Positions 8,293-38,821 of a stretch of DNA of 64,000 bases are shown here, one piece after another. Both the position numbers and the translations under genes were made by a program. Under the pieces are notes generated by a model. It was not told the origin of the DNA, made no database searches, and saw only the letters and a program-made list of their open reading frames with translations. Source of the stretch: Bacillota bacterium (lineage in GTDB: Bacteria; Bacillota; Proteinivoracia; UBA4975); contig JAAYIH010000049.1 in the NCBI GenBank assembly GCA_012523545.1, positions 43,841 to 107,840 of the forward strand. Direction: 5' to 3'. Positions within the stretch are counted from its first letter, which is position 1, and every line of letters begins with the position of its first letter.

Positions 8293-8294
8293 AG

Positions 8295-9938: not shown

Positions 9939-9946
9939 TTTTGCCA

Positions 9947-9985
9947 GGAGCCTACAGCGGCTCCTGGATTATTTTGGCAGAGATT
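9947..9985 (+). terminator. intrinsic terminator
   Basis: CCAGGAGC-ctacagcg-GCTCCTGG hairpin followed by ATTATTTT. Confidence 0.7.
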
Positions 9986-10069
9986 GTGAAATAAATAACC
10001 TGTCGACGGCAGGAAAAGAGGGCTTCGAAATAGAATCTACTACAATGTGGTGTAAATCACAGTACTCGT

Positions 10070-20786: not shown

Positions 20787-20838
20787 GGTGCCCCGTCGCC
20801 GGTTGAGGAGACAACTGGCGCGGGGCACCGCGTTTTTG
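20787..20838 (+). terminator. intrinsic terminator
   Basis: GGTGCCCCG...CGGGGCACC long stem followed by GCGTTTTTG. Confidence 0.75.
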
Positions 20839-20867
20839 TTGCCATAGCTTTGTGCTCATGTTAAAAT
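20839..20867 (+). promoter_or_regulatory. sigma-A-type promoter for rex (TTGCCA-17-TAAAAT)
   Basis: Hexamers and spacing read directly from the sequence. Confidence 0.5.
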
Positions 20868-20900
20868 TTTTACATACCGAACTGTGTGGAGGGATAGTTA

Positions 20901-21524
20901 TTGACGGAAAAAAAGCATCGCATCCCTGATGTCGTTATTCGCAGGCTTCCGGTATATCTCCGGTATTTGCAACAACTGATGAGCTATGATGTGGACACAG
21001 TATCTTCCCAGCAGATGGGCCATGATTTAAATCTTAACCCGGCTCAAATACGCAAGGACTTGTCCATTTTTGGTGATTTTGGCGTTAAGGGAATGGGTTA
21101 CCGGGTTTCCGAGCTGGCCGACAAACTTTCCAAAATCCTCGGGTTGGACAAGGAGATACCCATAGTTCTCGTGGGAGTAGGCAACCTGGGCGCCGCCCTG
21201 TGCAGGTACAACCGATATCAAAAATCTGCCACCAAAATCGTCGGCCTGTTTGACGGACATCCTGCCAAGATTGGTCAGGTGCACGGTTCCCTGGAAGTGC
21301 GGCCCATGGAAGAGTTGGTGGATTTCGTGCGCCAAAACAACATCAAGATGGCAATTATTACAGTTCCTGCCGCTGCCGCTCAATCGGTTTGCGATGCCCT
21401 GGTGGCTGCCGGCGTAAAAGCCATTTTAAATTTTGCCCCGGTACTGCTCAATGTTCCTGAGGGCGTGCGGGTTCAAAATTCAGATGTCACTGTAGAATTA
21501 CAGGCGTTGGCATACTATTTATGA
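20901..21524 (+). CDS. rex: redox-sensing transcriptional repressor Rex
   Basis: Winged-helix N-terminus PDVVIRRLPVYLRYL and an NADH-binding Rossmann fold VLVGVGNLGAAL. TTG start is 6 nt after GGAGGGA. Confidence 0.9.
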   Translation: MTEKKHRIPDVVIRRLPVYLRYLQQLMSYDVDTVSSQQMGHDLNLNPAQIRKDLSIFGDFGVKGMGYRVSELADKLSKILGLDKEIPIVLVGVGNLGAALCRYNRYQKSATKIVGLFDGHPAKIGQVHGSLEVRPMEELVDFVRQNNIKMAIITVPAAAAQSVCDALVAAGVKAILNFAPVLLNVPEGVRVQNSDVTVELQALAYYL

Positions 21525-21615
21525 GACTTTATCTTTGTGCGCAAAGCAGGATTTCACTGCTCGGCAGAGAAGTTTTATTGTGTACCTTTTCAGGATCTAA
21601 TTGAGGAGGATTGTG

Positions 21616-23031: not shown

Positions 23032-23103
23032 ATTTGCTGGAAATCTGCATCGTTTTCTTTTAAACTGGACAGTGTACGTAATAATTCCAAAGGGGTGATT
23101 TTC

Positions 23104-24384
23104 TTGAAGACAACCTTTCCTGGCGGCATTCATCCTCCATACAACAAAGAATTAACCGCCTCCAAAGCCATTGTGGAAATGCCCCTGCCCAAACGCGTGC
23201 GCCTTTTGTTACAGCAACACATTGGGGCGCCGTGCAAGCCCTTGGTGAAGAAGGGCGATGTGGTGACGGTGGGGCAAAAAATTGCCGACAGTGATGCATT
23301 TGTGTCGGCGCCGATTATCGCCAGCGTCGGCGGGGAAGTGGCCGCCGTGGATGCCGAGGGGATTGAAATCGTCACCGACCCCGAGCATTCCCGGTTTACC
23401 GGCCAGGCGCCTAAGTATGACACGCCCGAAGACATACGGCAAATCATCCGCGAAGCCGGAATCGTCGGGATGGGGGGAGCGGCTTTCCCTACCCATGTCA
23501 AGCTCAGCCCGCCTGAAGGCAAGGAAGTGCACACCCTGATTATTAATGGGGCTGAATGTGAACCTTATCTCAGCACCGACCACAGGGTTATGGTGGAACA
23601 GGGCGAAGAACTCATCGAAGGTATTAAGATTTTGCTCCGGGCCTGCGGGGCTCAAAAGGCCATTATCGGCATTGAAAAAAATAAGCCCGACGCCATTGAA
23701 AACCTGAGCCGCCTGTGCCGGGATGAGGAAAACATCCGGGTGGAGGCCGTCCCGGTGGTTTATCCCCAGGGCGGAGAGCGCCAGCTCATCAAGTCCTTGA
23801 CGGGCAGAGAAGTGCCGGTGGGCGGGTTGCCCCTGGATTTGGGCATCGTGGTGCAAAACGTGGCTACGGCGGTGGCTGTCCATCAGGCTGTAAACCTGGG
23901 GCGTCCCCTCATCGACCGGGTGGTTACCGTTTCCGGCCGGGGCGTCGCCGAGCCTGCCAACGTGCGCGTGCGGCTGGGAACTCCCATCAGGGACCTTATC
24001 GAATTTTGCGGCGGCATGCGGGATGATGCCGTTAAAGTGGTCAACGGCGGCCCCATGATGGGCAAGGCGGTGGCCAGTCTGGATGATCCTGTGACCAAGG
24101 GCACATCGGGAATTTTGGTGCTTACTGAAGCGGAAGTGCGCATCTATGAAGAGCGGACATGCATACGCTGCGCCCGGTGCGTTGACGCCTGCCCCATGCG
24201 GCTGATGCCCAATTACCTGGCTCTGTATTCCCGCAAGTCGATGTACAATGATGCCGAACAGATTCATTTGTTCAACTGTATTGAATGCGGCTGTTGTTCA
24301 TTTGTCTGTCCGGCCAGAATTCCCATTGTCCACTACATCCAAAAGGCGAAACATGAAATCAACAGTAAGCGGCGCAAGAAATAA
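23104..24384 (+). CDS. rnfC: Rnf electron transport complex subunit C
   Basis: N-terminal FPGGIHPPYNK and two 4Fe-4S motifs, CIRCARCVDACP and CIECGCCSFVCP. TTG start is about 8 nt after AGGGGTGA. Confidence 0.9.
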   Translation: MKTTFPGGIHPPYNKELTASKAIVEMPLPKRVRLLLQQHIGAPCKPLVKKGDVVTVGQKIADSDAFVSAPIIASVGGEVAAVDAEGIEIVTDPEHSRFTGQAPKYDTPEDIRQIIREAGIVGMGGAAFPTHVKLSPPEGKEVHTLIINGAECEPYLSTDHRVMVEQGEELIEGIKILLRACGAQKAIIGIEKNKPDAIENLSRLCRDEENIRVEAVPVVYPQGGERQLIKSLTGREVPVGGLPLDLGIVVQNVATAVAVHQAVNLGRPLIDRVVTVSGRGVAEPANVRVRLGTPIRDLIEFCGGMRDDAVKVVNGGPMMGKAVASLDDPVTKGTSGILVLTEAEVRIYEERTCIRCARCVDACPMRLMPNYLALYSRKSMYNDAEQIHLFNCIECGCCSFVCPARIPIVHYIQKAKHEINSKRRKK

Positions 24385-24412
24385 AGCAGCGGGCTAAAAG
24401 GAGGGGTATGAT

Positions 24413-25351
24413 ATGACCGAAAAATTAAAAGTAGGACCTTCGCCGCACATTCTGGATTCCCGTTCGGTAAGCAGTATAATGTGGGACGTCGTGATCGCCC
24501 TGATTCCCGTTACCGCGGCGGCTATAATCTATTTCGGCCTCAATGCAGTTTTTATTTTGTTGGTCTCGACGTTGTCCGCCATGATCTTTGAATCCCTGGT
24601 GGTGCACAAAAGCCTTAAACCCAAAAAGGTGTTGGGAGACGGCAGCGCAGCTGTTACAGGACTTTTGCTGGGGTTGATTCTGCCGCCTTCGGCGCCGTTG
24701 TGGATGGCGGTGGTGGGCAGCGGTGTTGCCATCCTCCTGGCCAAGCAGGCCTTTGGGGGTATCGGCAACAACATCTTCAACCCCGCTTTGGTAGGCCGCG
24801 CCGTCTTGTTTATGTCCTGGCCGGTGTTGATGACCCGGTGGCACCAGCCCCTGGCCCTGGACAACTGGTTCGCCGACCTGGTCAGCGGCGCAACGCCCCT
24901 GGGCGCAGGGAGCGCAAGCCTTATTGACCTGGTGCTGGGCAATGTCGGTGGTTCCTTGGGCGAGACCTCGGTGGTTGCCATCCTGTTGGGCGGAATATAC
25001 CTTTTGCTCAAGGGGCACATCGACTGGCGTATCCCCGGCGGTTACATCGGCACTGCAGCAATCATTGCTTTGCTAACCAATCAGTTTTCGCTGGAAGCCG
25101 TGGCATTTCATATCTGCGCCGGCGGGTTGCTCTTTGGCGCTGTCTTTATGGCCACCGATATGGTTACGTCTCCCACCACCAAAGTGGGCCGCCTGCTCTT
25201 CGGAATCGGCTGCGGGCTGGTCACCATGTATGTGCGCGTGTTTGCCAGCGCTCCCGAGGGCGTAACCTATGCCATTTTGTTTATGAACGCGCTGGTTCCC
25301 TTAATTGACCGCTATACAGTGCCCAAAACCTTTGGGGAGGTGAAAAAATAA
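24413..25351 (+). CDS. rnfD: Rnf complex subunit D
   Basis: NqrB/RnfD-type polytopic membrane protein in rnfCDGEAB order. Confidence 0.9.
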   Translation: MTEKLKVGPSPHILDSRSVSSIMWDVVIALIPVTAAAIIYFGLNAVFILLVSTLSAMIFESLVVHKSLKPKKVLGDGSAAVTGLLLGLILPPSAPLWMAVVGSGVAILLAKQAFGGIGNNIFNPALVGRAVLFMSWPVLMTRWHQPLALDNWFADLVSGATPLGAGSASLIDLVLGNVGGSLGETSVVAILLGGIYLLLKGHIDWRIPGGYIGTAAIIALLTNQFSLEAVAFHICAGGLLFGAVFMATDMVTSPTTKVGRLLFGIGCGLVTMYVRVFASAPEGVTYAILFMNALVPLIDRYTVPKTFGEVKK

Positions 25352-27030: not shown

Positions 27031-27042
27031 GAGGTGGCAGCA

Positions 27043-27684
27043 ATGTCAATACTGCAAGAACTCAAACGCGGAATTTTTGCCGAAAACCCGACATTCAGGC
27101 TGATGTTGGGGATGTGCCCCACCCTGGCTGTGACCACCCTGGCCGTCAACGGCGTGGGCATGGGCCTGGCTACCACTGCAGTGCTGTTGGGCTCCAACCT
27201 GGTTGTCTCAGCCCTGAAAAACGTCATACCCAACCAGGTGCGCATTCCCAGTTTCATCGTAATCATCGCCACATTTGTCACCGTGGTTTCCCTGTTGCTG
27301 GAAGCTTTTGCCTATTCGCTCTATGAAGCTTTGGGCATTTTTCTGCCCCTCATCGTGGTCAACTGTATTATCCTGGGCCGGGCCGAAGCTTATGCCTCCA
27401 AGCACTCATTGGGCAAATCGGCACTGGACGCCCTGGGCATTGGCCTGGGCTTTACCCTCAGCCTTACCGTGCTGGGCGCCATCCGGGAATTCCTGGGTGC
27501 CGGCACCGTCTTTGGCCTGCAGGTGCTGAGCGAAAGTGCTGATATGGCGACAATTTTTTCCCTGCCTCCCGGCGCCTTTATAACCCTTGGGCTGATGATG
27601 GCTCTCATAAACGGCCTTACTGCCCGGCGCGGCAAGCGCTCTGTCGCCCGCAGGAACCCGGCAGTGGCCAAGAGGGAGGGTTAA
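27043..27684 (+). CDS. rnfE: Rnf complex subunit E
   Basis: NqrD/RnfE family. ATG is 7 nt after GGAGGTG. Confidence 0.9.
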   Translation: MSILQELKRGIFAENPTFRLMLGMCPTLAVTTLAVNGVGMGLATTAVLLGSNLVVSALKNVIPNQVRIPSFIVIIATFVTVVSLLLEAFAYSLYEALGIFLPLIVVNCIILGRAEAYASKHSLGKSALDALGIGLGFTLSLTVLGAIREFLGAGTVFGLQVLSESADMATIFSLPPGAFITLGLMMALINGLTARRGKRSVARRNPAVAKREG

Positions 27685-27691
27685 GCAAGCG

Positions 27692-28258
27692 ATGGAACTG
27701 TTTATGATCTTCTTTGGCGCAATTTTCTTCAACAACTTTGTCCTCAACAGGTTCCTGGGCATCTGCCCCTTCCTGGGCGTGTCCAAGCGCATTGAAACTT
27801 CGGTTGGCATGGGCATGGCTGTTGCCTTCGTCATGACCCTGGCATCGGTCATGACCTGGTTGCTCCAGGGCCTGCTCCTCAACCCGCTGGGACTGGGTTA
27901 CCTGCAGACCATTGTTTTCATCCTGGTCATCGCGGCCCTGGTCCAGTTTGTGGAGATGTTCATGCAGAAGGTCAGCCCCACATTGCACAAAGCCCTGGGC
28001 GTGTATCTGCCCCTGATTACCACCAACTGCGCCATCCTGGGGATTGCCATCCTCAACATCGACTATAAGTACAACCTGGTGGAGACCATTGTGCATTCCC
28101 TGGGCGCCGCCATCGGCTTTACGCTGGCCCTGGTCATGCTGGCCGGAATCCGCGAAAAACTTGAAATCAACGATGTTCCAGATGCCTTTGCCGGTGTTCC
28201 CATCGCCCTCATCACCGCTGGGATCCTGGCCCTGGCTTTCTCTGGCTTCGTCCTTTAG
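27692..28258 (+). CDS. rnfA: Rnf complex subunit A
   Basis: NqrE/RnfA family membrane protein. Confidence 0.9.
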   Translation: MELFMIFFGAIFFNNFVLNRFLGICPFLGVSKRIETSVGMGMAVAFVMTLASVMTWLLQGLLLNPLGLGYLQTIVFILVIAALVQFVEMFMQKVSPTLHKALGVYLPLITTNCAILGIAILNIDYKYNLVETIVHSLGAAIGFTLALVMLAGIREKLEINDVPDAFAGVPIALITAGILALAFSGFVL

Positions 28259-28269
28259 GGGTGGATAAG

Positions 28270-29073
28270 ATGGAATTTCTTGTGGAAATAATCAAACCGG
28301 TCCTGAGCTTGACGGTCCTGGCCGTGGTGTTTGGCGGCATCCTGGCCTGGGCGGACAAAGTTTTCGCCGTCAAGAAGGACCCCCGGGTCGATGAAATCAT
28401 CGAGGTTCTGCCCGGGGCCAACTGCGGCGCCTGCGGGTATGCCGGCTGCGCCGCCTTCGCCGAAGCCGTTGCCAAAGGCGAGGCCCCAGTCAACGGTTGT
28501 CCCGTGGGCAGGCAGAAGGTTGCCGACGAAATCGCCAAAATCATGGGCGTTTCCGCCGCCTGCGACGACGAGTGTCTCAAAGCGCGCCTGGTTTGCCAGG
28601 GCAGCGACGATGTCGCCAAGACAAAGATGATCTACCACGGCATCGATGACTGCCGGGCGGCAGTGTTGCTGCACGGCGGCGACAAAACCTGTCCCTACGG
28701 TTGCCTGGGCCTCGGCACCTGCGTACGGGTATGTCCTTTTGACGCAATTTCCATGGGCGACAACGGCCTGCCCGTCATCGACGCCGGGTTGTGCACCGGG
28801 TGCAACAAATGCCGGGACGCCTGTCCCAAGGGAGTAATCCGGATGGTGCCTGAGGGTTCGGCCGTGCTGGTGGCGTGCAACTCCCACGACAAGGGAGCGG
28901 CAGTGGTTAAGGCGTGCAAGGTCGGTTGCATTGCCTGCGGCAAATGCGTTAAGGTTTGTCCCGAAGACGCCATCGCCCTGGTCGACAACCTGGCGGTTAT
29001 AGACCCCGCCAAGTGCACCAATTGCGGTGCCTGCGTCGAAGCCTGTCCTACCAAGGCCATAATTCGTTTGTAA
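28270..29073 (+). CDS. rnfB: Rnf complex subunit B (polyferredoxin)
   Basis: N-terminal TM helix, CGACGYAGC cluster, and several CxxCxxCxxxCP 4Fe-4S motifs. Confidence 0.9.
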   Translation: MEFLVEIIKPVLSLTVLAVVFGGILAWADKVFAVKKDPRVDEIIEVLPGANCGACGYAGCAAFAEAVAKGEAPVNGCPVGRQKVADEIAKIMGVSAACDDECLKARLVCQGSDDVAKTKMIYHGIDDCRAAVLLHGGDKTCPYGCLGLGTCVRVCPFDAISMGDNGLPVIDAGLCTGCNKCRDACPKGVIRMVPEGSAVLVACNSHDKGAAVVKACKVGCIACGKCVKVCPEDAIALVDNLAVIDPAKCTNCGACVEACPTKAIIRL

Positions 29074-29075
29074 AC

Positions 29076-29108
29076 GGGGCAGTGCCTGTCACACACAGGC
29101 ACTACCCC
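29076..29108 (+). other. 14-bp stem/5-nt loop RNA hairpin between rnfB and mrpE, without a canonical U tract
   Basis: GGGGCAGTGCCTGT-cacac-ACAGGCACTACCCC with one mismatch, followed by GTCCTATATTC. Confidence 0.6.
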
Positions 29109-29139
29109 GTCCTATATTCAAGCAAAGGAGAAGGCTTGA

Positions 29140-29625
29140 ATGAACGTCCTGGCGCTGTTTGTCCTTATCCTTTCGGTTTTTTGGCTGGTCATTGCCGGTT
29201 TTTCGCTCCAGAGCGCAGCGGTGGGGCTAATGACAATACTGTTTGTGGTTTGGTGGAACCGGGACCTTTTGCGCACGCTGATCCGGGGCAAAGTGTCGCT
29301 GCCCGGCAAAAAGATGCTGATTTTGGCTGGCTATTTTTTCAGTCTCCTCTGGCAGATTGTGCTGGCCAACATCCAGGTGGCCAGGATCCTCCTCAGCCGG
29401 AAAATGCCCCTGCAACCTGTGGTTGTGACCTTTAACCCCGGTCTTTCCAGCGACCTGAGCAAGACGGTGCTGGCCAATTCCATTACCCTCACCCCCGGCA
29501 CCCTGACTCTGGCTGTGGAGGGCGATGAATTCACCGTTCATACCCTGACCCTTTCCGCTGCCCAGGATGTGGTGGACTGGCCGCTGATCAACCTGTTGCG
29601 CCGCCTGGAGGGGGAAAGAGAATGA
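29140..29625 (+). CDS. mnhE: Na+/H+ antiporter subunit E (MrpE/MnhE; MbhA-like)
   Basis: MnhE family. ATG is 6 nt after AAAGGAGAAGG. Confidence 0.85.
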   Translation: MNVLALFVLILSVFWLVIAGFSLQSAAVGLMTILFVVWWNRDLLRTLIRGKVSLPGKKMLILAGYFFSLLWQIVLANIQVARILLSRKMPLQPVVVTFNPGLSSDLSKTVLANSITLTPGTLTLAVEGDEFTVHTLTLSAAQDVVDWPLINLLRRLEGERE

Positions 29626-29888
29626 TGACGGAATTTTTTTTGGGGGTTTGCGTTGCTCTCATCGCCCTGACCTTTGCCTGCATGGCCCGGGCGGCTGTGG
29701 GGCCGACGGCTATGGACCGGCTGATGGCCATAAATATCATCGGCACCAAGACAGTGGCAATTATATGCGTTATCTCTCTGGTCTTTAATGAGGATTTTTT
29801 TCTGGATGTGGCCATCGTCTACGCCCTGATCAGTTTTTTGACGACCATAGCTGTGGCAAAATACCTGCAGACCGGGTCTCTGTTTTAG
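29622..29888 (+). CDS. mnhF: Na+/H+ antiporter subunit F (MrpF)
   Basis: 88 aa with 3 TM helices, MrpF-like. Start overlaps the mnhE stop. Confidence 0.85.
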   Translation: MMTEFFLGVCVALIALTFACMARAAVGPTAMDRLMAINIIGTKTVAIICVISLVFNEDFFLDVAIVYALISFLTTIAVAKYLQTGSLF

Positions 29889-29900
29889 GGGGTGAACCGG

Positions 29901-30227
29901 GTGAAGGATATCGTCGTCGTTATATTGATGGTTGCCGGCACCTTTTTCTTTGCCATGGGGACATTGGGCTTGTGGCGTTTCCCCGATGTGTTTTCCCGGG
30001 CCCACGCCTCCACCAAATGCGATACGTTGGGGTGCGGCCTGATCTTGCTGAGCATGGTTGTGCGGTCGGGATTTTCACTGGCCAGCCTTAAGATGCTGCT
30101 CATTATCGGTTTCATATGGCTGACCAATGCTACCGCCGCTCATGTCATCGGCAACACTGCCCTGAAGCAGGGCTATCCCATGCTCAAGGAAACCCGCACC
30201 TGGATATACCGGGGCAGGGGGGAATGA
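29901..30227 (+). CDS. mnhG: Na+/H+ antiporter subunit G (MrpG)
   Basis: MrpG family. GTG start follows AGGGGGTGA. Confidence 0.85.
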   Translation: MKDIVVVILMVAGTFFFAMGTLGLWRFPDVFSRAHASTKCDTLGCGLILLSMVVRSGFSLASLKMLLIIGFIWLTNATAAHVIGNTALKQGYPMLKETRTWIYRGRGE

Positions 30228-30230
30228 ACA

Positions 30231-30473
30231 GTGTTACAGGCGCTGAATGCTTTGCTGTTGCTGTTTCTGATAGTCTGTGCCGTGGTGGTGGCCCGGACCA
30301 GGGATCTGCTCAGCGCTGCCGTAATCTTTGCCGCCTATTCATTGGTTATGGCCATTATTTGGCAACAATTGAAGGCGCCTGATCTGGCCATTACCGAGGC
30401 TGCCATTGGCGCGGGGGTTACCACTGTCCTGTTGCTGGTGGTAATCAGCAAGACCGGGAGGCATGAAGAATGA
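30231..30473 (+). CDS. small MnhB/MrpA-C-terminal-related membrane protein (MbhD-like)
   Basis: 80 aa with 3 TM helices, in the position of MbhD in Mbh-type modules. Confidence 0.6.
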   Translation: MLQALNALLLLFLIVCAVVVARTRDLLSAAVIFAAYSLVMAIIWQQLKAPDLAITEAAIGAGVTTVLLLVVISKTGRHEE

Positions 30474-30754
30474 GGGTTGCCCTGACCACCGTTGTTCTGG
30501 TCGCCATTGGCGTCATATTGGTGATGATGGTTGCGGAAATGCCCGAATTTGGCGCCGGGAAACCGGCAAGCAATGAAGTATCCGCCCACTACGTGAAAAA
30601 TGCCGTTAAAGAAACGGGCGCCAGCAATTTTATTGCGGCCATTATCCTGGATTACCGCGCGTACGATACATTGGGCGAAGTAATAGTTCTTTTTGCGGGT
30701 ATTGCCGCGGTGTTGGTTGTTCTGGATGTGCACAAAGGCGGGAGAGGGCGATAA
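30470..30754 (+). CDS. small MnhB-related membrane protein (MbhE-like)
   Basis: 94 aa, hydrophobic, translationally coupled to its neighbours. Confidence 0.6.
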   Translation: MRVALTTVVLVAIGVILVMMVAEMPEFGAGKPASNEVSAHYVKNAVKETGASNFIAAIILDYRAYDTLGEVIVLFAGIAAVLVVLDVHKGGRGR

Positions 30755-30755
30755 G

Positions 30756-31193
30756 ATGCAGAGCGTCGTGCTGCAGACGGTGATAAAGCTGTTGTTGCCT
30801 TTTATCCAGGTTTATGGATTGTATATTATATTCCATGGCCACATTTCCCCCGGCGGCGGTTTTGCCGGCGGGGCGGTGATGGCCGCCAGCTTTGTGCTTT
30901 TTGCCATGAGTTATGGCGTCGGTGAAGGCTTTAAGCGCCTGCCGCGGCTGATCGCCCAGTGGCTGGAGTCCCTGGGCGGCCTGATTTACATCGCGCTGGG
31001 GCTGACGGGCATATTGCGCGGCGCTGCGTTCCTGACCAATGTGCCTGAATGGCTGGGACAAGCCGGTCAGTTGTTCAGCGCCGGGCTCATCCCTCTGCTG
31101 ACCACGGCAATCGGCTTAAAGGTGTGCAGTACCATTGTCACCCTGCTCTATCATTTGCTGGAGGAAGGTCATTATGATAGCCAAACTGATTAG
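30756..31193 (+). CDS. mnhB: Na+/H+ antiporter subunit B (MrpB)
   Basis: Conserved HGHISPGGGFAGG motif. ATG follows GGGAGAGGG. Confidence 0.8.
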   Translation: MQSVVLQTVIKLLLPFIQVYGLYIIFHGHISPGGGFAGGAVMAASFVLFAMSYGVGEGFKRLPRLIAQWLESLGGLIYIALGLTGILRGAAFLTNVPEWLGQAGQLFSAGLIPLLTTAIGLKVCSTIVTLLYHLLEEGHYDSQTD

Positions 31194-31536
31194 CAATATG
31201 CACTTTCTCACAGCCATGGTTCTCTTCCTCATCGGTTTCCATACCATGCTCACCCATTCCAATCTCATTAAGAAGGTTATGGGCATGAATATAATGGAAA
31301 CGGGTATATTTTTGTTTTTCATCTCCGTGGGCTATGTCCGGGGCGGCAGTTCGCCCATTGCTGTTCCGGGGGCAGAAGGTTATATAAATCCTCTGCCTTC
31401 GGCGCTGATCCTTACCGGCATAGTGGTCAGTGTCAGTCTTACGGCCTTCGCTCTGGCGCTGATTGTCAAACTGTATAATTATTACGGAACCGTGGATGCC
31501 GATAAGATAATGCAGCTGAGGGGAGGAGAAGAATGA
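31174..31536 (+). CDS. mnhC: Na+/H+ antiporter subunit C (MrpC, NuoK-like)
   Basis: NuoK/MrpC family. ATG is 5 nt after GGAGGAAGG. Confidence 0.85.
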   Translation: MIAKLISNMHFLTAMVLFLIGFHTMLTHSNLIKKVMGMNIMETGIFLFFISVGYVRGGSSPIAVPGAEGYINPLPSALILTGIVVSVSLTAFALALIVKLYNYYGTVDADKIMQLRGGEE

Positions 31537-33008
31537 ATCACCTTCCCGTTTTGCTGGTCGCTTTGTACCTGGCTGCGGCCCTGGGATTGCCCTTGTTGGG
31601 GCGCAACAAAAAATTCCCGGCCGGCTTGTTTGCCGTCGGAGTTGCCGGTTGCGGCCTTATCCTGGCGGCGGCGTCGGCCTGGCATGTGGCCGGGACGGGG
31701 ACATACAGTTATTTCCCCGGCGGCCACCAGGCTCCGCTGGGCATTGAAATCACCATTGATTGGGTGACGGTATTCTTGCACCTCACCATCAATCTGCTGG
31801 CCGTGCTGGTGCTTATTTACAGTACCGCCGACCTCAGCCGCGAGCTTGGAGGCGGCCGGGCCAAGACCTGGTATTATTCCCTCTTTTTCCTGCTCCTGGC
31901 CGCTTTAAACGGTATAGTAATGGCCTTTGACCTCTTCAACATTTTCGTTTTTACCGAAATTGGCACCATTGCTGCCTGCGCCCTGGTGGCCATCAGGCCC
32001 AAACGCCTGTGCGTGGAGGCCGCCTTTAAGTACCTGGTTTTGAGTGCCCTGGGCTCAGGGATGGTGTTGCTGGGAATCGGCTTGCTTTATATGGTGACGG
32101 GTTATTTGAACATAGGCGCCATGGCACAGGCGTTGCCCAAAGCCTTTGCCATGTATCCCTGGAACGTACTCGTCGCCTTGTCCCTCTTTGTAATCGGCCT
32201 GGGCACCAAGGCGGCGCTGTTTCCGTTGCATGTGTGGCTGCCCGACGCCCACTCGTCGGCGCCCACGCCGTCCAGCGCCGCTCTCTCAGGGCTGGTCATC
32301 AAGGTCTACGCCGTGGCCATGGCCAGAATTATTTTCCAGGCTTACGGCGCCGAGCTGTTTTCCCGCATTCCCGTTCCCGATGTAATTCTCGTCTTTTCCA
32401 CGGCGGGGATTTTCGCCGGTTCGGTGCTGGCCATAGGCCAAACGGACATTAAGCGAATGTTGGCTTATTCCAGCGTGGCGCAAATTGGATACATCTTTCT
32501 GGGCTTCGCCCTGGTCACCATGAACGGAATAGTGGGCGGAATCCTGCACATCTTTTGCCACGCTGTGATGAAATCCCTCTTGTTTCTTGCTGCAGGAGCA
32601 ATTATATTTAAGACAGGCATCCGCAAAATCGAAGACCTGGCCGGCATGGGTTACCGCATGCCGCTGACTATGGCGGCGTTCAGCATCGGTGCTCTGTCCA
32701 TGGTGGGGATACCGGGATTCAGCGGATTTATCAGCAAGTATTACCTGGCATTCGGCGCCCTGGCAGCTGACAGGCCAGTGTATGTAGCTGTGATACTGCT
32801 CAGCAGCCTGCTCAATGCCGTGTATTTCTTCCCCATTGTGGTGCGCGCCTTTTTTGGCCATAAGGAGAAGCAAATGACCTGGGACCGGTTGCCCTGGGCG
32901 ATGACGGTTCCCATGGTGGTTTTGGCTGCACTCACTGTTATTTTGGGCATATTGCCCGGCGGCCTGGTGCGCATTGCGGAACTGGCGGCCGGCGCATGGC
33001 TGAATTGA
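31533..33008 (+). CDS. mnhD: antiporter-like subunit MrpD (NuoN/NuoM-like)
   Basis: 491 aa proton-pumping-type subunit with the ALFPLHVWLPDAHSSAPTPSSA motif. Confidence 0.85.
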   Translation: MNHLPVLLVALYLAAALGLPLLGRNKKFPAGLFAVGVAGCGLILAAASAWHVAGTGTYSYFPGGHQAPLGIEITIDWVTVFLHLTINLLAVLVLIYSTADLSRELGGGRAKTWYYSLFFLLLAALNGIVMAFDLFNIFVFTEIGTIAACALVAIRPKRLCVEAAFKYLVLSALGSGMVLLGIGLLYMVTGYLNIGAMAQALPKAFAMYPWNVLVALSLFVIGLGTKAALFPLHVWLPDAHSSAPTPSSAALSGLVIKVYAVAMARIIFQAYGAELFSRIPVPDVILVFSTAGIFAGSVLAIGQTDIKRMLAYSSVAQIGYIFLGFALVTMNGIVGGILHIFCHAVMKSLLFLAAGAIIFKTGIRKIEDLAGMGYRMPLTMAAFSIGALSMVGIPGFSGFISKYYLAFGALAADRPVYVAVILLSSLLNAVYFFPIVVRAFFGHKEKQMTWDRLPWAMTVPMVVLAALTVILGILPGGLVRIAELAAGAWLN

Positions 33009-33025
33009 CTGGAGGCGAATGGATC

Positions 33026-34513
33026 ATGAACAGCGTTTATAATTACCTTCCCCTGTGGGCTACGCTGTTTCCCGTACTGGCTACTGTGCCCCTCTTTTTT
33101 GTTGAGCGGCGTTCCGCCAAAATACGGGACGTGTTTGCCCAGGCAGTAACGGGCATAACTTTGCTGTTAGTGGCGTTGATGTACCCCTATGTCCGCGACC
33201 ACGGGGTCATTGGCGTGTCCTACCCGGGCATACTGCCCCCTTTTGGCATATCTTTCCGGGCTGATATCCTTGGCTTTATGCTGGCCCTGATTGCTGCGGC
33301 GGTCTGGTTTTTGGCCACAGTCTATTCCAAGGTTTATATAGGGCACGAGGGGGGAGGAAACCGGTATTACCCCTTTTTGTTGCTGAGCCTGGGCGGCTGC
33401 CTGGGCGTGTTCCTCACCGGCGATTTCTTCAGCCTTTTTGTCTTTTTTGAGTTGATGTCCCTGGCCTCATACGTGCTGGTTGTCCATGAGGAGAGCGACG
33501 CCGCCATTGCGGCGGGGTACAAGTACCTGATTCTCACACTGATCGGCGGCCTCGCCCTGTTTTTTGGCATCGTCATTGCTTTCGAAGTGGCCGGCAACGT
33601 CGACATCGCGCCAGGGAATTTGTTGTTTGCCGAGCCCAATCGCCTGTCCTTTATTGCTTTTCTGGCCTTTCTGGTGGGCTTTGGGATGAAAATGGGCATA
33701 TTTCCCATGCATGTCTGGCTGCCCGACGCCCACCCCGTGGCCCCGTCGCCGGCCAGCGCCCTGTTGTCGGGCGTAATGCTCAAAACCGGTGCGTACGGAA
33801 TGATCCGGGTGGTATACAACGTATATGGTCCGGAATTGATTGCCGCTGCCGGCTGGGACACCATCCTGCTGGTCCTGGCCGGGATAACGATTTTCCTGGG
33901 CTCTGCGGTGGCTATTGCCCAGACCGACATCAAACGGCGCCTGGCCTATTCCAGCATCGGGCAAATGGGTTATGTGCTCCTGGGTATTGCCCTGCTCACT
34001 GAAAACGGCTTGACGGGCACTACTTTTCATATCTTTTCCCATGCCATGATGAAATCAACTTTGTTCCTGGCGGCGGGGGCAATCATATTCAAGACGGGTA
34101 CGCGGAAAATCAAAGAGATGGCCGGCATCGGCTTCAAAATGCCCGTTACCCTTGGCTGCTTTACTCTGGCTGCCCTGGCCATGATTGGCATACCGCCCCT
34201 CAACGGCTTTATCAGCAAGCTGATTTTGTCCATGGGCGCGCTGGATGCCGGCAAGCCTGCCTTTGTTTTCCTGCTCATCCTGAGCAGCCTGATGAACGGG
34301 ATATACTACCTGCCCATTATCATCAGCGCCTTTTTCGGCGTCAAAAAGGAAGAGCGCAAATGGAGCCGGGCTTTTTCGGAGCTCAAGCCTTCCATGTGGA
34401 TTCCCATTGCGGTTCTGGCGGCATCGTGTCTGGTCTTTGGCCTGTTGCCCATAAATCTGCCTTTGAAATGGGCGCAAATTGCTGCCAAAGCTCTGCTGGG
34501 AGCTGGTAATTGA
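33026..34513 (+). CDS. second antiporter-like subunit (MrpD/NuoM-like paralog)
   Basis: Motif IFPMHVWLPDAHPVAPSPASA. Start ATG at 33026, with 32996 as an alternative. Confidence 0.85.
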   Translation: MNSVYNYLPLWATLFPVLATVPLFFVERRSAKIRDVFAQAVTGITLLLVALMYPYVRDHGVIGVSYPGILPPFGISFRADILGFMLALIAAAVWFLATVYSKVYIGHEGGGNRYYPFLLLSLGGCLGVFLTGDFFSLFVFFELMSLASYVLVVHEESDAAIAAGYKYLILTLIGGLALFFGIVIAFEVAGNVDIAPGNLLFAEPNRLSFIAFLAFLVGFGMKMGIFPMHVWLPDAHPVAPSPASALLSGVMLKTGAYGMIRVVYNVYGPELIAAAGWDTILLVLAGITIFLGSAVAIAQTDIKRRLAYSSIGQMGYVLLGIALLTENGLTGTTFHIFSHAMMKSTLFLAAGAIIFKTGTRKIKEMAGIGFKMPVTLGCFTLAALAMIGIPPLNGFISKLILSMGALDAGKPAFVFLLILSSLMNGIYYLPIIISAFFGVKKEERKWSRAFSELKPSMWIPIAVLAASCLVFGLLPINLPLKWAQIAAKALLGAGN

Positions 34514-36786
34514 TGAGCGCTGAAGCCCTGATTCTGGCCGCCATATTAACCGCCCTGGCCGGGGGGGTAATTACCTTCCTTTTTCCCGTCCACAGCCGCA
34601 GGCTGGCGGGAATAATTAACCTGGCGGTTACAGCTCTCAGTTTTTTGCTGGTGGCCGCAGCCTGGTTTGGCTTCAGACACAGTGTGGAATTTTCCTTGCC
34701 CGGGTTTTTGTACCTGGGTTTATCCTTTCAGCTCAATGCATTAACGGCGTTTTTTGCCCTGCTCTTTGCGGGCGCCTGGGTTGCGGCATCCATTTACAGT
34801 TTGCAGTACATGGAGCACGAGGATAACCAGCGCCGGTTCTATGCATTCTTGCAACTGACTTTGGCCGGCTGCCTTGGGGTGGTCCTGGCGGCAGATTTGC
34901 TGACCCTGTTCCTCTTTTTCGAAATGATGACCTTTTGTTCCTGGGTCCTGGTCCTCCACCAGGAAAACCGGGATGCCATGGAAGCCGGCAACCTCTATCT
35001 CTACTTGGGAGTTATCGGCGGCCTGGTTCTGCTGATGGGGGTGTTTTTGCTCTATCATGCCGCCGGTTCGGTGGCGTTTGCCGCCATTCCCGGCGCTGTG
35101 GCACAAAACCCTCGACTGATGATTGCCATGGGCATCTGCTTTTTGATTGGCTTTGGCATCAAGGCCGGGATGGTCCCGCTGCATATTTGGCTGCCCAAGG
35201 CCCACCCTGTGGCGCCTACGCCTGCCAGCGCCCTCTTGTCAGGCATCATGATTAAGACTGGGGCATACGGCCTGTTGCGGGTCTTTTATTCCATACTCGC
35301 TCCGGCCGCCAATAAAGGCCTTGCGGGAGCGGTGTTCGGCGTCGTGTTTTTGTGGCTGGGCCTGCTCACCATGTTGCTGGGTGCATTCCTGGCCCTGCAG
35401 CAGCGCCAGGCCAAGCGCACTTTGGCATACAGCAGCGTCAGCCAGATAGGCTACATCATCATGGGGCTGGGGGCGGCCCTGCTCCCGGCGGGCAAGGATT
35501 TGTACGGCATATCGGGCATGCTTTTCCACATTCTCAACCACGCCGTGTTCAAAACCACTTTGTTTATGTGCGTCGGGGCAATATATGTGTACACCCATAC
35601 CCTTGAGTACGACCATTTGGGCGGTTTGGGCCGTAAGTACCCCGGGGTGCTGGTTCCCTTTGCCGTTGCCGCACTGGGCATTGCCGGCGCGCCCGGTTTT
35701 AACGGTTACGCCAGCAAGACTTTTCTCCACCATGCCTTGACCGACCTCTATCACTACCAGCCTTCGTGGTGGCTGTGGCTGGCCGAAAAGCTCTTTGTTG
35801 TGGCCAGCGCCCTGACCATATGTTACTTTATCAAGCTGTTTGTCAACCTTTTCCTCGGTGAGAAGGACTGGAGCCATCTTCCCGACCGCATGGCGCCTGC
35901 CTTGCAAATTCCCCTGTGGCTCGGCGCTGCAACTGTCGCCACCATCGGTCTCTTCCCGCACCGGGTTGTACGCGCCCTGATTATTCCCGCAATGGATGTC
36001 CTGGGCTTTGATGCCGGGGCCCTGGACTATGTTGCACATATTAACGTGTGGAACTGGCACGATGTCTGGGGAATGGCGATTACGGCGGCGGTGGCGGGGG
36101 TAATTTTGCTCCTGATTTATAAGTTTAAGATTGACTCCCTGGTTTTTCCGCGCTGGCTCAGCGTGGAAAAAATGGTCTACCGGCCGTTGGCAAGGGGCTT
36201 TATGTGGCTTTGTCTGAGGCCAGGGGTCAATGCGGACAGCATGGTCAACCGGCTTTACCACGGTGCGGGAGACTGGTCCATGGCTCTTTTCCGCCTTGTG
36301 ACCAAGGTGGATGAGACCACCGACAAGGCCTATCGCAGCGCAGGGGACTTGTCCCTGGCCCTTTTTGGCCTGGTAACCAAAGTGGACCAATCTGCCGACA
36401 TGGCCTACCGCACAATGGGCGAGTTCTTCGCCCTGGTCTGCCGTGCCGCCGGTTTTGTGGATAAAGGCACCAACAGCGCTTATGTGCTCCTGGGCAAAGG
36501 AACCAGACAGGCATGTATAAGTCTCGATCGCCTGGACCAGGACCTGGACGCATTATACAAGGGACTGGGGCTGGTATATACCCGTGCTGCCAGCAAACTG
36601 GATCTGGTGGAACGCAAAGCGTCCGGACCACTGCCCAAGAAGCGGCCGGCGCCGGACTGGCTGAAAAATTTGCAAACAGCCCTGGCCAAACCGGCCTGGA
36701 ACATTTCCAACTTGAATGTCGAAGCTATTGTGGTTGCCGGTGCTTTGCTGGTGGTGGCAATAATCCTGATATTTTACAGCCGCTGA
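34510..36786 (+). CDS. NuoL/MrpA-like antiporter subunit with about 250-aa C-terminal extension and terminal TM helix
   Basis: A NuoL-type core (motif VPLHIWLPKAHPVAPTPASA) is followed by two TM helices, then a long hydrophilic stretch with three ~20-aa repeats (..LVTKVD...D.AYR..G...A..) and a terminal TM helix. Confidence 0.85.
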   Translation: MMSAEALILAAILTALAGGVITFLFPVHSRRLAGIINLAVTALSFLLVAAAWFGFRHSVEFSLPGFLYLGLSFQLNALTAFFALLFAGAWVAASIYSLQYMEHEDNQRRFYAFLQLTLAGCLGVVLAADLLTLFLFFEMMTFCSWVLVLHQENRDAMEAGNLYLYLGVIGGLVLLMGVFLLYHAAGSVAFAAIPGAVAQNPRLMIAMGICFLIGFGIKAGMVPLHIWLPKAHPVAPTPASALLSGIMIKTGAYGLLRVFYSILAPAANKGLAGAVFGVVFLWLGLLTMLLGAFLALQQRQAKRTLAYSSVSQIGYIIMGLGAALLPAGKDLYGISGMLFHILNHAVFKTTLFMCVGAIYVYTHTLEYDHLGGLGRKYPGVLVPFAVAALGIAGAPGFNGYASKTFLHHALTDLYHYQPSWWLWLAEKLFVVASALTICYFIKLFVNLFLGEKDWSHLPDRMAPALQIPLWLGAATVATIGLFPHRVVRALIIPAMDVLGFDAGALDYVAHINVWNWHDVWGMAITAAVAGVILLLIYKFKIDSLVFPRWLSVEKMVYRPLARGFMWLCLRPGVNADSMVNRLYHGAGDWSMALFRLVTKVDETTDKAYRSAGDLSLALFGLVTKVDQSADMAYRTMGEFFALVCRAAGFVDKGTNSAYVLLGKGTRQACISLDRLDQDLDALYKGLGLVYTRAASKLDLVERKASGPLPKKRPAPDWLKNLQTALAKPAWNISNLNVEAIVVAGALLVVAIILIFYSR

Positions 36787-36816
36787 CGGATATTTTCGGA
36801 AGACGGAGGAATTGGC

Positions 36817-37887
36817 ATGGACTGTGCGGCAAGAAAATTATACGCGGCTGTTGCAATTTTGGCGCTGCTGCTGAGCCCGGGCTGTCTTGGGTTCCATTCC
36901 CGGCAGCAACAGCCGGCGGAGCTTAAAGAATTCAAAGAAACTGTCATTGCCATGGATACCCTGGTGACAATTGCGCTCTACGTTCCGTCGGAGGAAAAGG
37001 CGCACAAGGTGTTTTCCGAAGTAAGAAACGAATTGCAGCGGCTGGAGGGTATTCTCAGCGCCCACCAGCCCGGCAGCGACGTCATCGCAATTTCGGCAGC
37101 CGCCGGCAAGGAGCCGGTCAAGGTCAGCCCCGAAACCCTCCATGTGGTGCAGACTGCCCTGCAATACGCCCACATAACTCAAGGCGCCTTTGACATTACC
37201 GTGGCTCCAGTGTTGCGGTTGTACAATTTTGACACCAATAACCCTGTCCGGCCCTCAGTCCGGGAGTTGGAGCGCACGCTGCCCCTGGTGGACTGGCGCA
37301 AAGTGCATGTTGATGAGGCTCAAAGGACGGTGTTTCTGTCCGCTGAAGGAATGGAACTCGATTTGGGCGGAGTTGCCAAGGGTTATATCACCGACGCTGC
37401 AGCCGAAATCTTGCTAAAAAACGGCGTTGAATTTGGTTCCGTCAACGCCGGCGGCGACATCCGCCTGCTGGGTCCCAAGCCCGACGGCAACCCCTGGCGC
37501 GTGGGGATAAAAGATCCGGTCAACCCCGGTGCCAATAACTGGTTTGCCATTGTGGAAGTCAGGGGCGGCGCCCTGGTCACATCCGGGGATTACGAGCGAG
37601 CTTTTGTGGAGGACGGTGTACGCTGGCATCACATCATCGATCCAGCCAGCGGCCTGCCTGCCAGTGGGGCCAGCAGCGTCACCGTACTGGCGCCCACAGC
37701 CGAAATTGCGGATATATTATCCACCGCTCTCTTTGTTCTGGGGCCGGAAAAGGGGTTGGAGCTGGTGGAGTCTTTGCCTGAAACAGAGGCTCTCATTTGG
37801 GCCCGGGGCGAAGTTTTCTGGTCCTCCGGCCTGATTCCCCAAGAGGGGCGAGGAGATGTATTTTATTTTACCGTTAAGGACAAATAG
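36817..37887 (+). CDS. apbE: FAD:protein FMN transferase ApbE (lipoprotein)
   Basis: ApbE family. Lipobox LSPGC places it outside the cytoplasm. Confidence 0.9.
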   Translation: MDCAARKLYAAVAILALLLSPGCLGFHSRQQQPAELKEFKETVIAMDTLVTIALYVPSEEKAHKVFSEVRNELQRLEGILSAHQPGSDVIAISAAAGKEPVKVSPETLHVVQTALQYAHITQGAFDITVAPVLRLYNFDTNNPVRPSVRELERTLPLVDWRKVHVDEAQRTVFLSAEGMELDLGGVAKGYITDAAAEILLKNGVEFGSVNAGGDIRLLGPKPDGNPWRVGIKDPVNPGANNWFAIVEVRGGALVTSGDYERAFVEDGVRWHHIIDPASGLPASGASSVTVLAPTAEIADILSTALFVLGPEKGLELVESLPETEALIWARGEVFWSSGLIPQEGRGDVFYFTVKDK

Positions 37888-37895
37888 CCTTACAG

Positions 37896-38279
37896 TTGGG
37901 AGTGCTGCCCGTGCGTCGGGGAGATAAGGTTATCGCGTTAATTTTGACTGCCGTTGTCCTGGCAGGGATATACATGTATTTTTTGCGCCCTCCCGCCACC
38001 GAAGCTTTGATCGTCATCAACGTCGACGGGGAGGATCTGTATACTTTTACCCTGTATCAAAAGGGCAGGGACGAAATTATCGAAGTGGAGGGCGTGCTGG
38101 GTATCACCAAAGTGCACCTGCAGGACGGGCGCGTACGGGTGATAGAGTCGGCCTGCCCGGATAAAATTTGCGTGCATACAGGCTGGACCAATAATCCGGC
38201 CAAACCCATTGCCTGCTTGCCCAACCGGGTGGTGGTGAAGGTGTTTGGCCAGCCTGAGGATGGAGTTGATCTGCAATAG
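37896..38279 (+). CDS. NusG domain II-containing (DUF1312) membrane-anchored protein
   Basis: N-terminal TM helix plus a NusG_II-like beta domain. This family is typically linked to ApbE and Gx transporters. Confidence 0.65.
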   Translation: MGVLPVRRGDKVIALILTAVVLAGIYMYFLRPPATEALIVINVDGEDLYTFTLYQKGRDEIIEVEGVLGITKVHLQDGRVRVIESACPDKICVHTGWTNNPAKPIACLPNRVVVKVFGQPEDGVDLQ

Positions 38280-38317
38280 AAAAGGTAAATTTCAAAGCAT
38301 ATTGGACAGGCAATTCT

Positions 38318-38821
38318 GTGCGTTTGCTGGTAATAACCGCCATGTTCATCACCATGGCCACCATTCTGCATATCATTGAAGGGCTGTTGCCGCCGATTCC
38401 CGTCACTGGCGCCAAACTGGGGCTGGCGAATATTATCACCGTTGCAGCCATTTTTTTGTTGGGGCCCAGGATGGCGCTGGCTGTCGCAGTGGGCAGGACG
38501 CTGCTGGGTTTCCTGTTCAGCGCATCGGCAGTGGGCTTTGCCATGAGCTTCTCCGGCGCCGTTCTCAGTTGGGCAGTGATGTCTTTGCTCTTCCAACTGG
38601 CCCGGCATTCCTTTAGCTTAATCGGCATCAGTTTGGCCGGCGCTGTGGCCCATAATATCGCCCAGCTTACCGTTGCCAGTTTCGTCCTGGAAAATATTTC
38701 TACTTTTACTTTGTTGCCGCTTTTAATGTTTTTTGCCGTTCCCACTGGTATAATGGTAGGAGCGGCGTCGGGGTTTTTGATTCGCGTTTTGGAACGTATT
38801 TCCAAAGGGGAAAAAAGGTGA
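38318..38821 (+). CDS. Gx transporter family membrane protein (heptaprenyl diphosphate synthase component I-like)
   Basis: 167 aa with about 5 TM helices and a glycine-rich motif. It is the usual partner of ApbE and NusG_II. Confidence 0.65.
   Translation: MRLLVITAMFITMATILHIIEGLLPPIPVTGAKLGLANIITVAAIFLLGPRMALAVAVGRTLLGFLFSASAVGFAMSFSGAVLSWAVMSLLFQLARHSFSLIGISLAGAVAHNIAQLTVASFVLENISTFTLLPLLMFFAVPTGIMVGAASGFLIRVLERISKGEKR

Follow-up and report, generated by a model that had tools for sequence, protein, structure and literature searches.

Analysis of a 64-kb stretch of DNA from a Bacillota bacterium (positions 1 to 64,000, referred to here as the window) revealed a block of 19 genes in which an rnf cluster, an mrp cluster, and a set of flavinylation genes follow one another head to tail on the forward strand. 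The block consists of rnfCDGEAB, ten mrp genes, and apbE, nusG_II, and Gx (6 + 10 + 3; Table 1). Gene families were determined with Pfam and cross-checked with NCBIfam, and gene starts were taken from calls on identical metagenome contigs. Pfam recognized RnfC, D, G, E, A, and B; MNHE, MrpF, MnhG, MbhD, MbhE, MnhB, and a NuoK-like MrpC; three Proton_antipo_M proteins of 491, 505, and 758 amino acids (aa); and ApbE, NusG_II, and Hpre_diP_synt_I (the "Gx" family). Thus, every gene identity proposed in the initial annotation of this DNA (rnf, mrp, apbE, nusG_II, and Gx) was confirmed by Pfam, and its count of 20 genes from rnfC to Gx had to be corrected to 19. The distances between neighboring genes range from -20 to +66 nucleotides (nt), the widest being the rnfB-mrpE gap, in agreement with the overlaps or gaps of less than 70 nt described there. 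A consensus scan detected no T-run terminator in any intergenic gap of the array, as had also been claimed. Comparison with other genomes revealed a conserved neighborhood, specific to one clade, that is built of ordinary components.

Table 1. Features of the rnf-mrp-apbE block and of the region 5' of it (window coordinates)
Feature	Coordinates	Strand	Evidence and remarks
Intrinsic terminator	20787..20840	+	GC stem then TTTTTGTTG; -38 kcal/mol, T-run
Palindrome ATGTTAAAATTTTTACAT, Rex-operator-like	20858..20875	+	26 nt 5' of rex
rex, redox-sensing repressor family	20901..21524	+	Put_DNA-bind_N + CoA_binding
aspA, aspartate ammonia-lyase/fumarase class II family	21601..23031	+	Lyase_1, FumaraseC_C
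rnfC	23095..24384	+	Pfam; alternative start 23104
rnfD	24413..25351	+	NQR2_RnfD_RnfE, 1.9e-112
rnfG, 559 aa	25351..27030	+	N-terminal transmembrane (TM) helix + five FMN_bind domains
rnfE	27034..27684	+	Pfam; called start 27043
rnfA	27692..28258	+	Pfam
rnfB	28261..29073	+	Pfam, NCBIfam; called start 28270
RNA hairpin directly 3' of rnfB stop codon	29074..29110	+	15-pair stem, T-poor tail CCTATATTC
mrpE	29140..29625	+	Pfam
mrpF	29622..29888	+	Pfam
mrpG	29892..30227	+	Pfam
MbhD-like piece, similar to part of MrpA C-terminal domain	30231..30473	+	Pfam, NCBIfam
MbhE-like piece, similar to part of MrpA C-terminal domain	30470..30754	+	Pfam, NCBIfam
mrpB	30756..31193	+	MnhB domain
mrpC, NuoK-like	31174..31536	+	Pfam
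mrpD1, antiporter-like subunit	31533..33008	+	E142, K226, K257, K402
mrpD2, antiporter-like subunit	32996..34513	+	E152, K232, K263, K408
NuoL/HyfB/MrpA-N-like antiporter subunit, 758 aa	34510..36786	+	E138, K218, K249, K403
apbE, FAD:protein FMN transferase	36817..37887	+	Pfam, NCBIfam
NusG_II-domain gene	37896..38279	+	Pfam; called start 37911
Gx / PF07456, EetB family (ECF-S-like FAD-export subunit)	38318..38821	+	Pfam; family role PMC9973259

Close relatives of the block were obtained from exact-protein look-ups; among the matches listed, a metagenome scan with MrpE contributed one further linked locus (L095). Ten distinct genomes share the co-directional order rnfCDGEAB, mrp, apbE(-nusG_II)-Gx(-maf-radC), the most distant of them with MrpE identities of 39 to 43%, and six contigs of the window's own species carry the rnf-mrp order as well. 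MrpE identity is 66% in L087 and 56% in L088, 43% in L174, in Alkalicella caledoniensis (L090), and in Candidatus Contubernalis alkaliaceticus (L092), 41% in Anaerobranca gottschalkii (L093) and in L091, 40% in the metagenome contig L095, and 39% in L175; L087, L088, L091, L174, and L175 are uncultured. The sequence of a further locus, L089, stops just 5' of mrpE. The linked genomes belong to Proteinivoracaceae, Dethiobacteraceae, and uncultured Bacillota and include three cultivated species from two NCBI classes, all members of the two named families. A. caledoniensis, A. gottschalkii, and Ca. Contubernalis alkaliaceticus are alkaliphiles. The identities of rnf and of mrp drop in the same order across the linked genomes, and this parallel divergence fits joint vertical inheritance. 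The adjacency, for which the initial annotation had suggested a comparison of related genomes, is therefore not unique to the window genome.

The flanks of the block vary among the linked genomes, which have either rex-aspA or valS-folC upstream and differ by loss of nusG_II and by gene insertions. The rex gene upstream of rnf is kept in L087, L088, L090, L093, and L174. A moaC gene is located between rnfB and mrpE in Ca. Contubernalis (9488 to 9988) and 5' of mrp in L007 (4275 to 4757), while a MOSC/MoCF gene is located between mrpA and apbE in Alkalicella (17811 to 18731), Anaerobranca (17553 to 18470), and L174 (17798 to 18718). Two different molybdenum cofactor (Moco) genes have been recruited to two borders of one block.

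Mrp loci beyond these relatives were collected by an MrpE alignment scan of one-genome-per-species contigs, and the window proteins were mapped with phmmer onto 80 loci. The genome and metagenome loci from the MrpE scan are a broad sample of the family among the matches listed rather than the nearest relatives. Outside the clade, rnf lies within 10 kb of mrp in 3 of the 80 genome loci among the matches listed: two Ca. Fimenecus genomes, in which rnf is divergent from mrp at a distance of about 250 to 270 nt, and one Methanosarcinales metagenome-assembled genome (MAG), in which rnf is 3 kb 5' of mrp on the same strand. Of the listed metagenome loci, 22 extend for 7 kb or more upstream of mrp, and rnf is present in that sequence in none of them. 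These counts indicate that the co-directional rnf-mrp adjacency is clade-specific and rare elsewhere. In the literature searched, no paper describing or discussing an rnf-mrp linkage was found, in keeping with the remark in the initial annotation that it had not been characterized. The genome paper of Ca. Contubernalis lists Rnf as HUE98_01685-01710 and a multisubunit antiporter as HUE98_01720-01765, that is, under near-consecutive tags, and makes no comment on their proximity (PMC10608574). All parts of the block come from known families, and the sole undescribed aspect is the clade-conserved nesting of mrp between rnfB and apbE.

All six Rnf subunit families were found together in C-D-G-E-A-B order (Pfam E-values of 1e-55 to 1e-112), with the NCBIfam models TIGR01947 (rnfG) and TIGR01944 (rnfB) above cut-off. 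Complexes of the Rnf family oxidize ferredoxin, reduce NAD+, and export Na+. The subunit lengths are ordinary apart from that of RnfG, whose five FMN_bind domains (FMN, flavin mononucleotide) each contain a D-x-x-SGAT flavinylation site (S149, S251, S351, S444, and S537). An enlarged RnfG is present in every rnf-mrp-linked relative as well (270 to 563 aa). In Ca. Contubernalis, a separate gene for a 118-aa FMN_bind protein is positioned 5' of rnfC. In L087, rnfE (8187 to 8565) is broken into two open reading frame (ORF) fragments without a gene call, which represents either an assembly frameshift or a pseudogene. The Rnf of anaerobic Firmicutes (rnfCDGEAB; Na+-translocating ferredoxin:NAD+ oxidoreductase) has the same six subunits in the same order, and in the window ApbE and an EetB-family gene are likewise nearby; however, the window RnfG carries five FMN-binding domains rather than a single one, and apbE is separated from rnfB by ten mrp genes. 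Multi-flavinylated RnfG proteins have been described as a class, with a proposed role in electron transfer to extracytoplasmic acceptors; like the window RnfG, they have two or more FMN_bind domains with an SGAT site in each (PMC8238504, Meheust et al. 2021). Mrp is mentioned 0 times in that paper.

ApbE and Gx (EetB family) are known helpers of Rnf flavinylation. ApbE is the FMN transferase acting on RnfG and RnfD. PF07456, to which Gx belongs, is the EetB family, an FAD-binding subunit (FAD, flavin adenine dinucleotide) that resembles the S component of energy-coupling factor (ECF) transporters and is needed for FAD export for extracytosolic flavinylation; the numbers of genomes in which EetB genes colocalize with rnf, apbE, and eetA are 572 (Clostridia), 2,169, and 3,328, respectively (PMC9973259). 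By analogy with this system, the NusG_II protein encoded directly 5' of Gx is probably the EetA-type partner of EetB. The arrangement resembles that of FmnB(ApbE)/EetA/EetB in Listeria monocytogenes (PMC9973259) in that ApbE is accompanied by a PF07456 protein whose gene is preceded by a small partner gene. The Listeria-type system differs in its ECF-T and ECF-A partners, since none (CbiQ and ABC ATPase families) was detected among the window ORFs scanned; as in Listeria, these partners may be encoded elsewhere and shared. Ca. Fimenecus has the order rnfB-nusG_II-Gx-(one gene)-apbE, uninterrupted by mrp genes. Clustering of rnf with apbE and eetB was already known, so the mrp genes, set between rnfB and the genes for the Rnf helpers, lie within a recognized functional neighborhood; of the positional arguments for a functional link, this one is the strongest.

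The mrp genes are arranged in the order E-F-G-MbhD-MbhE-B-C-D-D'-NuoL-like and encode homologs of all seven subunits MrpA to MrpG. MrpA is represented by the NuoL-like protein and the MbhD and MbhE pieces, and MrpD is encoded twice. In NCBIfam, the MbhD and MbhE pieces align to positions ~620 to 790 of MrpA models, and the 758-aa protein matches the HyfB, NuoL, and MrpA-N models over ~650 residues. The Glu of TM5 and the Lys residues of TM7, TM8, and TM12 are kept in all three antiporter-like subunits (Table 1). Residues were mapped by counting alignment positions against E137, K219, K250, and K392 of 7qru_D, which we take to be the functionally important residues of that subunit. The mrp genes are intact, so the initial annotation's caveat that they might be pseudogenes does not apply. 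The best Protein Data Bank (PDB) matches of all three large subunits are MbhH and Mbs subunits from Pyrococcus furiosus. Among the long forward-strand ORFs scanned in the 64-kb window, including those of the cluster, no hydrophilic NiFe-hydrogenase or Nuo subunit, no NuoH/MbhM homolog, and no homolog of NuoA, J, B, C, D, or I was detected. The initial description of three antiporter-like subunits without a hydrophilic NiFe/Nuo module was thus correct within this scope.

The survey of the 80 loci revealed the layout E-F-G-MbhD-(MbhE)-B-C-D-D-(D)-A in 80 of 80 among the matches listed, with local permutations in a few. The loci come from Lachnospiraceae, other Clostridia, Deltaproteobacteria, Verrucomicrobia, Methanosarcinales, and Halobacteria. 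In the loci with enough downstream sequence, the next downstream gene is not related to hydrogenase or Nuo genes (10/10); it encodes a rhodanese, a radical SAM protein, a histidine kinase, ComEA, a solute-binding protein, a DUF3048 protein, HemN, a LysR protein, a methyltransferase, and one protein without a Pfam family. Because these neighbors are unrelated throughout, an Mrp module of this type appears to need no redox partner. These results indicate that the E-F-G-first Mrp is a common stand-alone layout of anaerobes. The initial annotation had interpreted the gene order as that of the membrane arm of hydrogenase-type complexes; the order indeed matches MbhA-H rather than mrpABCDEFG, but it is not special to hydrogenase arms, since bacterial and archaeal loci share it throughout the survey. 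An Mrp review states that mrp clusters of anaerobes differ markedly from the Bacillus order and may include three mrpB-like genes, and a paper on serpentinite MAGs gives the annotation "MrpEFGBBBCD, MrpDD."

In comparison with Group 1 Mrp of Bacillus and Anoxybacillus (mrpABCDEFG; PDB entries 7qru and 6z16), the window cluster has all subunit types A to G and the conserved Glu and Lys residues in common. It differs from Group 1 in its E-F-G-first order, in the division of MrpA over three genes, and in the presence of three antiporter-like subunits instead of two; its large subunits are also nearer to MbhH and Mbs than to MrpA or MrpD of Bacillus. According to the scheme of Ito et al. 2017, it would be an irregular, anaerobe-type cluster. 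The membrane arm of P. furiosus MBH/MBS (PDB entries 6cfw and 6u8y) shows the same order (MbhA-H, corresponding to E, F, G, MbhD, MbhE, B, C, and D); in contrast to it, the window has no equivalent of MbhI-N (NuoH-like, NiFe large and small, and ferredoxin-like subunits) and encodes two additional antiporter-like subunits.

The C terminus of the NuoL-like subunit (35950 to 36786, ~280 aa) is repetitive and amphipathic, with units of ~22 to 25 residues such as AYRSAGDLSLALFGLVTKVDQSAD and one terminal TM helix. It resembles the lateral helix of NuoL but is much longer, and it evolves fast between relatives. Its last 200 aa were considered as a docking domain for Rnf, and this interpretation was rejected because the stretch is repetitive, amphipathic, and lateral-helix-like and also occurs in L007, where mrp is not linked to rnf.

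The rnfB-mrpE junction is marked by the hairpin that immediately follows the rnfB stop codon (Table 1), the sole palindrome of its kind in the window. The 86-nt junction region 29060 to 29145, which includes a second hairpin over the ribosome-binding site, has a folding energy of -36 kcal/mol (z = -6.6). Of the 10 linked genomes, 8 carry a hairpin directly behind the stop codon of rnfB. The six hairpins that could be aligned share 13 consensus pairs, 6 of which show compensatory double changes, and the consensus also contains G-U pairs; these features indicate selection for RNA structure and speak against a DNA operator. The stem core GCGCCTGT...ACAGGCGC is recognizable at the same place in L087, L088, L090, L093, and L174, even between genomes in which MrpE identity falls to ~40%. 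Such conservation is unusually high for a plain terminator, and the stem may be a processing or regulatory RNA element. An Rfam scan of the window gave no match, which places the junction hairpin outside the RNA families described there.

The hairpin differs in its surroundings among the linked genomes. In Alkalicella, Anaerobranca, and L174, the stem is bordered by A/T tracts in the manner of an intrinsic terminator; a TATAAT box comes next, and two of these genomes read TGTTATAAT there. Ca. Contubernalis also has a canonical terminator after mrpA. The tail of the window hairpin is T-poor, in contrast to the T-run present on every other good terminator in the window, and for this reason partial termination, attenuation, or mRNA stabilization is likelier here than full termination. 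The window hairpin is probably a partial terminator, an attenuator, or an mRNA-stabilizing element. Within the 66-nt rnfB-mrpE gap, the only promoter-like element is a TATATT with a weak -35 element, which was not flagged by the scan. In L091 and L175, the rnfB-mrpE gap measures 17 to 22 nt and contains no hairpin, so that the operon fusion looks complete in this branch. The initial annotation had regarded rnfC to Gx as a single transcription unit. The common direction and the short gaps are consistent with this view, but a single unbroken unit is doubtful because the conserved hairpin after rnfB is terminator-like and followed by a -10 box in relatives; the foreign genes at the block borders of relatives point in the same direction.

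Beyond Gx, the genes maf (5 nt), radC (12 nt), mreB (63 nt), mreC, and mreD follow in the same direction and are just as closely spaced. No canonical terminator was detected in gaps of at least 35 nt from rex (after the terminator at 20787 to 20840) to ~49930. Because maf, radC, and the mre genes are spaced as tightly as the genes of the block, spacing alone is weak evidence of shared function. On the upstream side, the block probably starts at rex-aspA, where the terminator closes the preceding unit and marks the likely 5' limit. An 18-mer identical to the palindrome ATGTTAAAATTTTTACAT occurs ~26 nt before rex in L088. A search of the window for Rex operators gave 6 matches versus 5.3 expected, which is not statistically significant. 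The palindrome is possibly a site of Rex autoregulation that heads a rex-aspA-rnf unit. Rex may also control rnf, although conservation in a relative is confined to the site that precedes rex.

On balance, we lean toward the explanation that rnf and mrp encode two autonomous membrane machines that are kept, together with maturation genes, as one inherited block. Rnf would be a canonical six-subunit ferredoxin:NAD+ oxidoreductase whose RnfG carries five covalent-FMN domains. Mrp would be a complete stand-alone CPA3 Na+(K+)/H+ antiporter in the Mbh-like layout of anaerobes, with a split MrpA and one additional MrpD, and ApbE and the EetA/EetB-like pair would have the task of FMN attachment to RnfG and RnfD, on the outside of the membrane. 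Electrogenic Na+ export by Rnf would be coupled to the oxidation of ferredoxin, and Mrp could use the resulting membrane potential to swap cytoplasmic Na+ for external H+. This exchange would acidify the cytoplasm at high pH (pH homeostasis) and set the Na+/H+ balance for ATP synthesis. Such a role in a Na+/H+ cycle would fit the alkaliphilic carriers. Expression of the two clusters is probably linked but graded, in that the conserved hairpin would reduce mrp expression compared with that of rnf. In the window genome, mrp most likely relies on read-through of the T-poor hairpin after rnfB; in some relatives, the hairpin might act as a real terminator with an mrp promoter behind it.

A comparable cooperation was proposed for Methanosarcina acetivorans, in which Mrp is thought to tune the Na+/H+ ratio for ATP synthesis beside the Na+-pumping Rnf (PMC7399021). 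There, as suggested here for the window, a Na+-pumping Rnf and a multisubunit Na+/H+ antiporter would share one ion economy, which in M. acetivorans includes a Na+/H+-promiscuous ATP synthase. The M. acetivorans system differs in that it is archaeal, has the mrpABCDEFG order, and was described without genetic linkage (PMC7399021), whereas the window clusters are contiguous. Mrp and Rnf have each been seen as an adaptation to alkaline conditions (PMC11931622).

Several observations weigh against a functional block. L176, a fairly close relative, has mrp alone with no rnf link. L007, also fairly close, has the order moaC-mrp-apbE-Gx-maf, and tblastn detected no trace of rnf in the 4.2 kb upstream. 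This region of L007 (1 to 4200) contains nearly no ORFs of at least 80 aa on either strand, gave no Rfam match, and includes a flavodiiron-like fragment on the reverse strand; it is an unexplained exception, possibly degraded sequence or poor assembly. In addition, we infer co-regulation of rnf and mrp from their position only, and the linkage in the clade may go back to a single evolutionary event. The chromosomal stretch valS-folC ... maf-radC-mreBCD is syntenic across Firmicutes, so the conservation of rnf-mrp within it could be passive. Finally, the window organism, which is known from metagenome samples, may not be an alkaliphile.

These points lead to the main alternative, namely, that a single ancestral event placed mrp between rnfB and apbE and that this arrangement was then merely inherited, with no special functional or regulatory tie. 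The block does lie inside a long co-directional housekeeping array and is joined equally tightly to maf, radC, and mreBCD; rnf is parted from mrp by a terminator-like hairpin and, in relatives, also by a -10 box; unrelated Moco genes have entered at the borders in relatives; and the scarcity of rnf near this Mrp type outside the clade (3/80 and 0/22 loci among the matches listed), together with the unlinked L007 and L176, is what such a history would produce. On the other hand, the contiguity outlived the changes at the flanks (rex-aspA versus valS-folC, nusG_II loss, and insertions), two further lineages place rnf beside this Mrp type in other arrangements, and the short hairpin-free gap in L091 and L175 resembles a true operon fusion. 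Cooperation of a Na+ pump with a Na+/H+ antiporter is, moreover, physiologically well grounded (PMC7399021). Purely passive inheritance is a serious possibility that we nevertheless regard as rather unlikely.

The initial annotation had also raised the idea of a physical supercomplex, in which Rnf is docked as the redox module on the complex I-like Mrp arm and ferredoxin oxidation drives ions through the antiporter-like subunits. The conserved adjacency, in which mrp has rnfB on one side and the Rnf maturation genes on the other, would suit such an assembly, as would the lack of a further redox module among the long forward-strand ORFs scanned in the window and the fact that the Mrp subunits are nearest to those of the redox-driven MBH and MBS. 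However, the same Mrp architecture stands alone in the large majority of the genomes sampled, and no NuoH/MbhM-type coupling subunit was detected among the window ORFs scanned. RnfA, D, E, B, and C have no fusions or additional domains; RnfG is the only enlarged subunit, and its additional extracytoplasmic FMN domains belong to a class already described. The amphipathic C-terminal stretch of the NuoL-like subunit is found in the unlinked L007 too. The hairpin, the foreign genes at the junctions, and the divergent orientation in Ca. Fimenecus argue against obligate co-assembly. Rnf complexes that have been purified and whose structures are solved work as complete ion pumps in the absence of Mrp, which also weighs against this idea. 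Signs of a supercomplex (fused subunits, docking domains, or obligate co-occurrence) were not found at the locus, and this Mrp type occurs mostly without rnf nearby. A physical supercomplex is thus unsupported and, in our estimation, highly improbable; that Rnf and the three-antiporter Mbh-type Mrp arm of Proteinivoracaceae, Dethiobacteraceae, and uncultured relatives form one supercomplex or an obligate functional pair is, taken as a whole, very unlikely. If a supercomplex did exist, it would be a complex I-like arm powered by an Nqr/Rnf-type instead of a NiFe/Nuo-type redox module, with ferredoxin oxidation directly driving H+/Na+ exchange.

The least probable explanation is that the mrp genes encode the membrane arm of another respiratory complex with soluble or peripheral subunits encoded elsewhere: the subunits resemble NuoL, M, N, and K, and the Ca. 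Contubernalis genome paper gives HUE98_01720-01765 two assignments, one to an antiporter and one to a putative membrane portion of NADH:quinone oxidoreductase (PMC10608574), but all seven Mrp subunit types are present as a full, self-sufficient antiporter set, homologs of NuoH, A, J, B, C, D, and I were absent from the cluster and window ORFs scanned, and the downstream neighbors elsewhere are unrelated (10/10 loci).

With two autonomous machines in one inherited block as the preferred explanation, the locus would gain meaning if the linkage reflects real co-regulation: it would then be a compact gene set for a Na+-based energy economy, comprising a primary Na+ pump, a Na+/H+ exchanger, and flavin attachment genes. 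Among the carriers are anaerobic alkaliphiles and one organism proposed to oxidize acetate syntrophically. A. caledoniensis and A. gottschalkii are cultivable organisms in which it could be asked how the membrane potential generated by Rnf serves pH homeostasis. Apart from a supercomplex, the value of the finding lies in comparative genomics rather than in a new mechanism, as the component families are well known and this Mrp type is commonly stand-alone.

The remainder of the window encodes mainly housekeeping functions. Upstream of the block are clpX, two lon genes, engB, hprK, a flavoenzyme cluster, valS, folC, rex, and aspA; downstream are maf, radC, mreBCD, a gene for a penicillin-binding protein, rodA, rpmA, obg, nadD, comEA, comEC, holA, gpr, spoIIP, and hrcA. 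The flavoenzyme cluster (8340 to 13395) encodes a DAO+Rieske protein (532 aa), a Fer2_4 protein (110 aa), an SO_alpha_A3/BFD protein (136 aa), and a DAO protein (389 aa) and was likened to oxidoreductase systems of the opine, sarcosine, or proline type. Two forward-strand ORFs, 6859 to 8292 (477 aa) and 19263 to 20039 (258 aa), matched no Pfam family at the thresholds applied. The presence of gpr (germination protease) and spoIIP at 60285 to 62236 indicates that the source organism is probably an endospore former.

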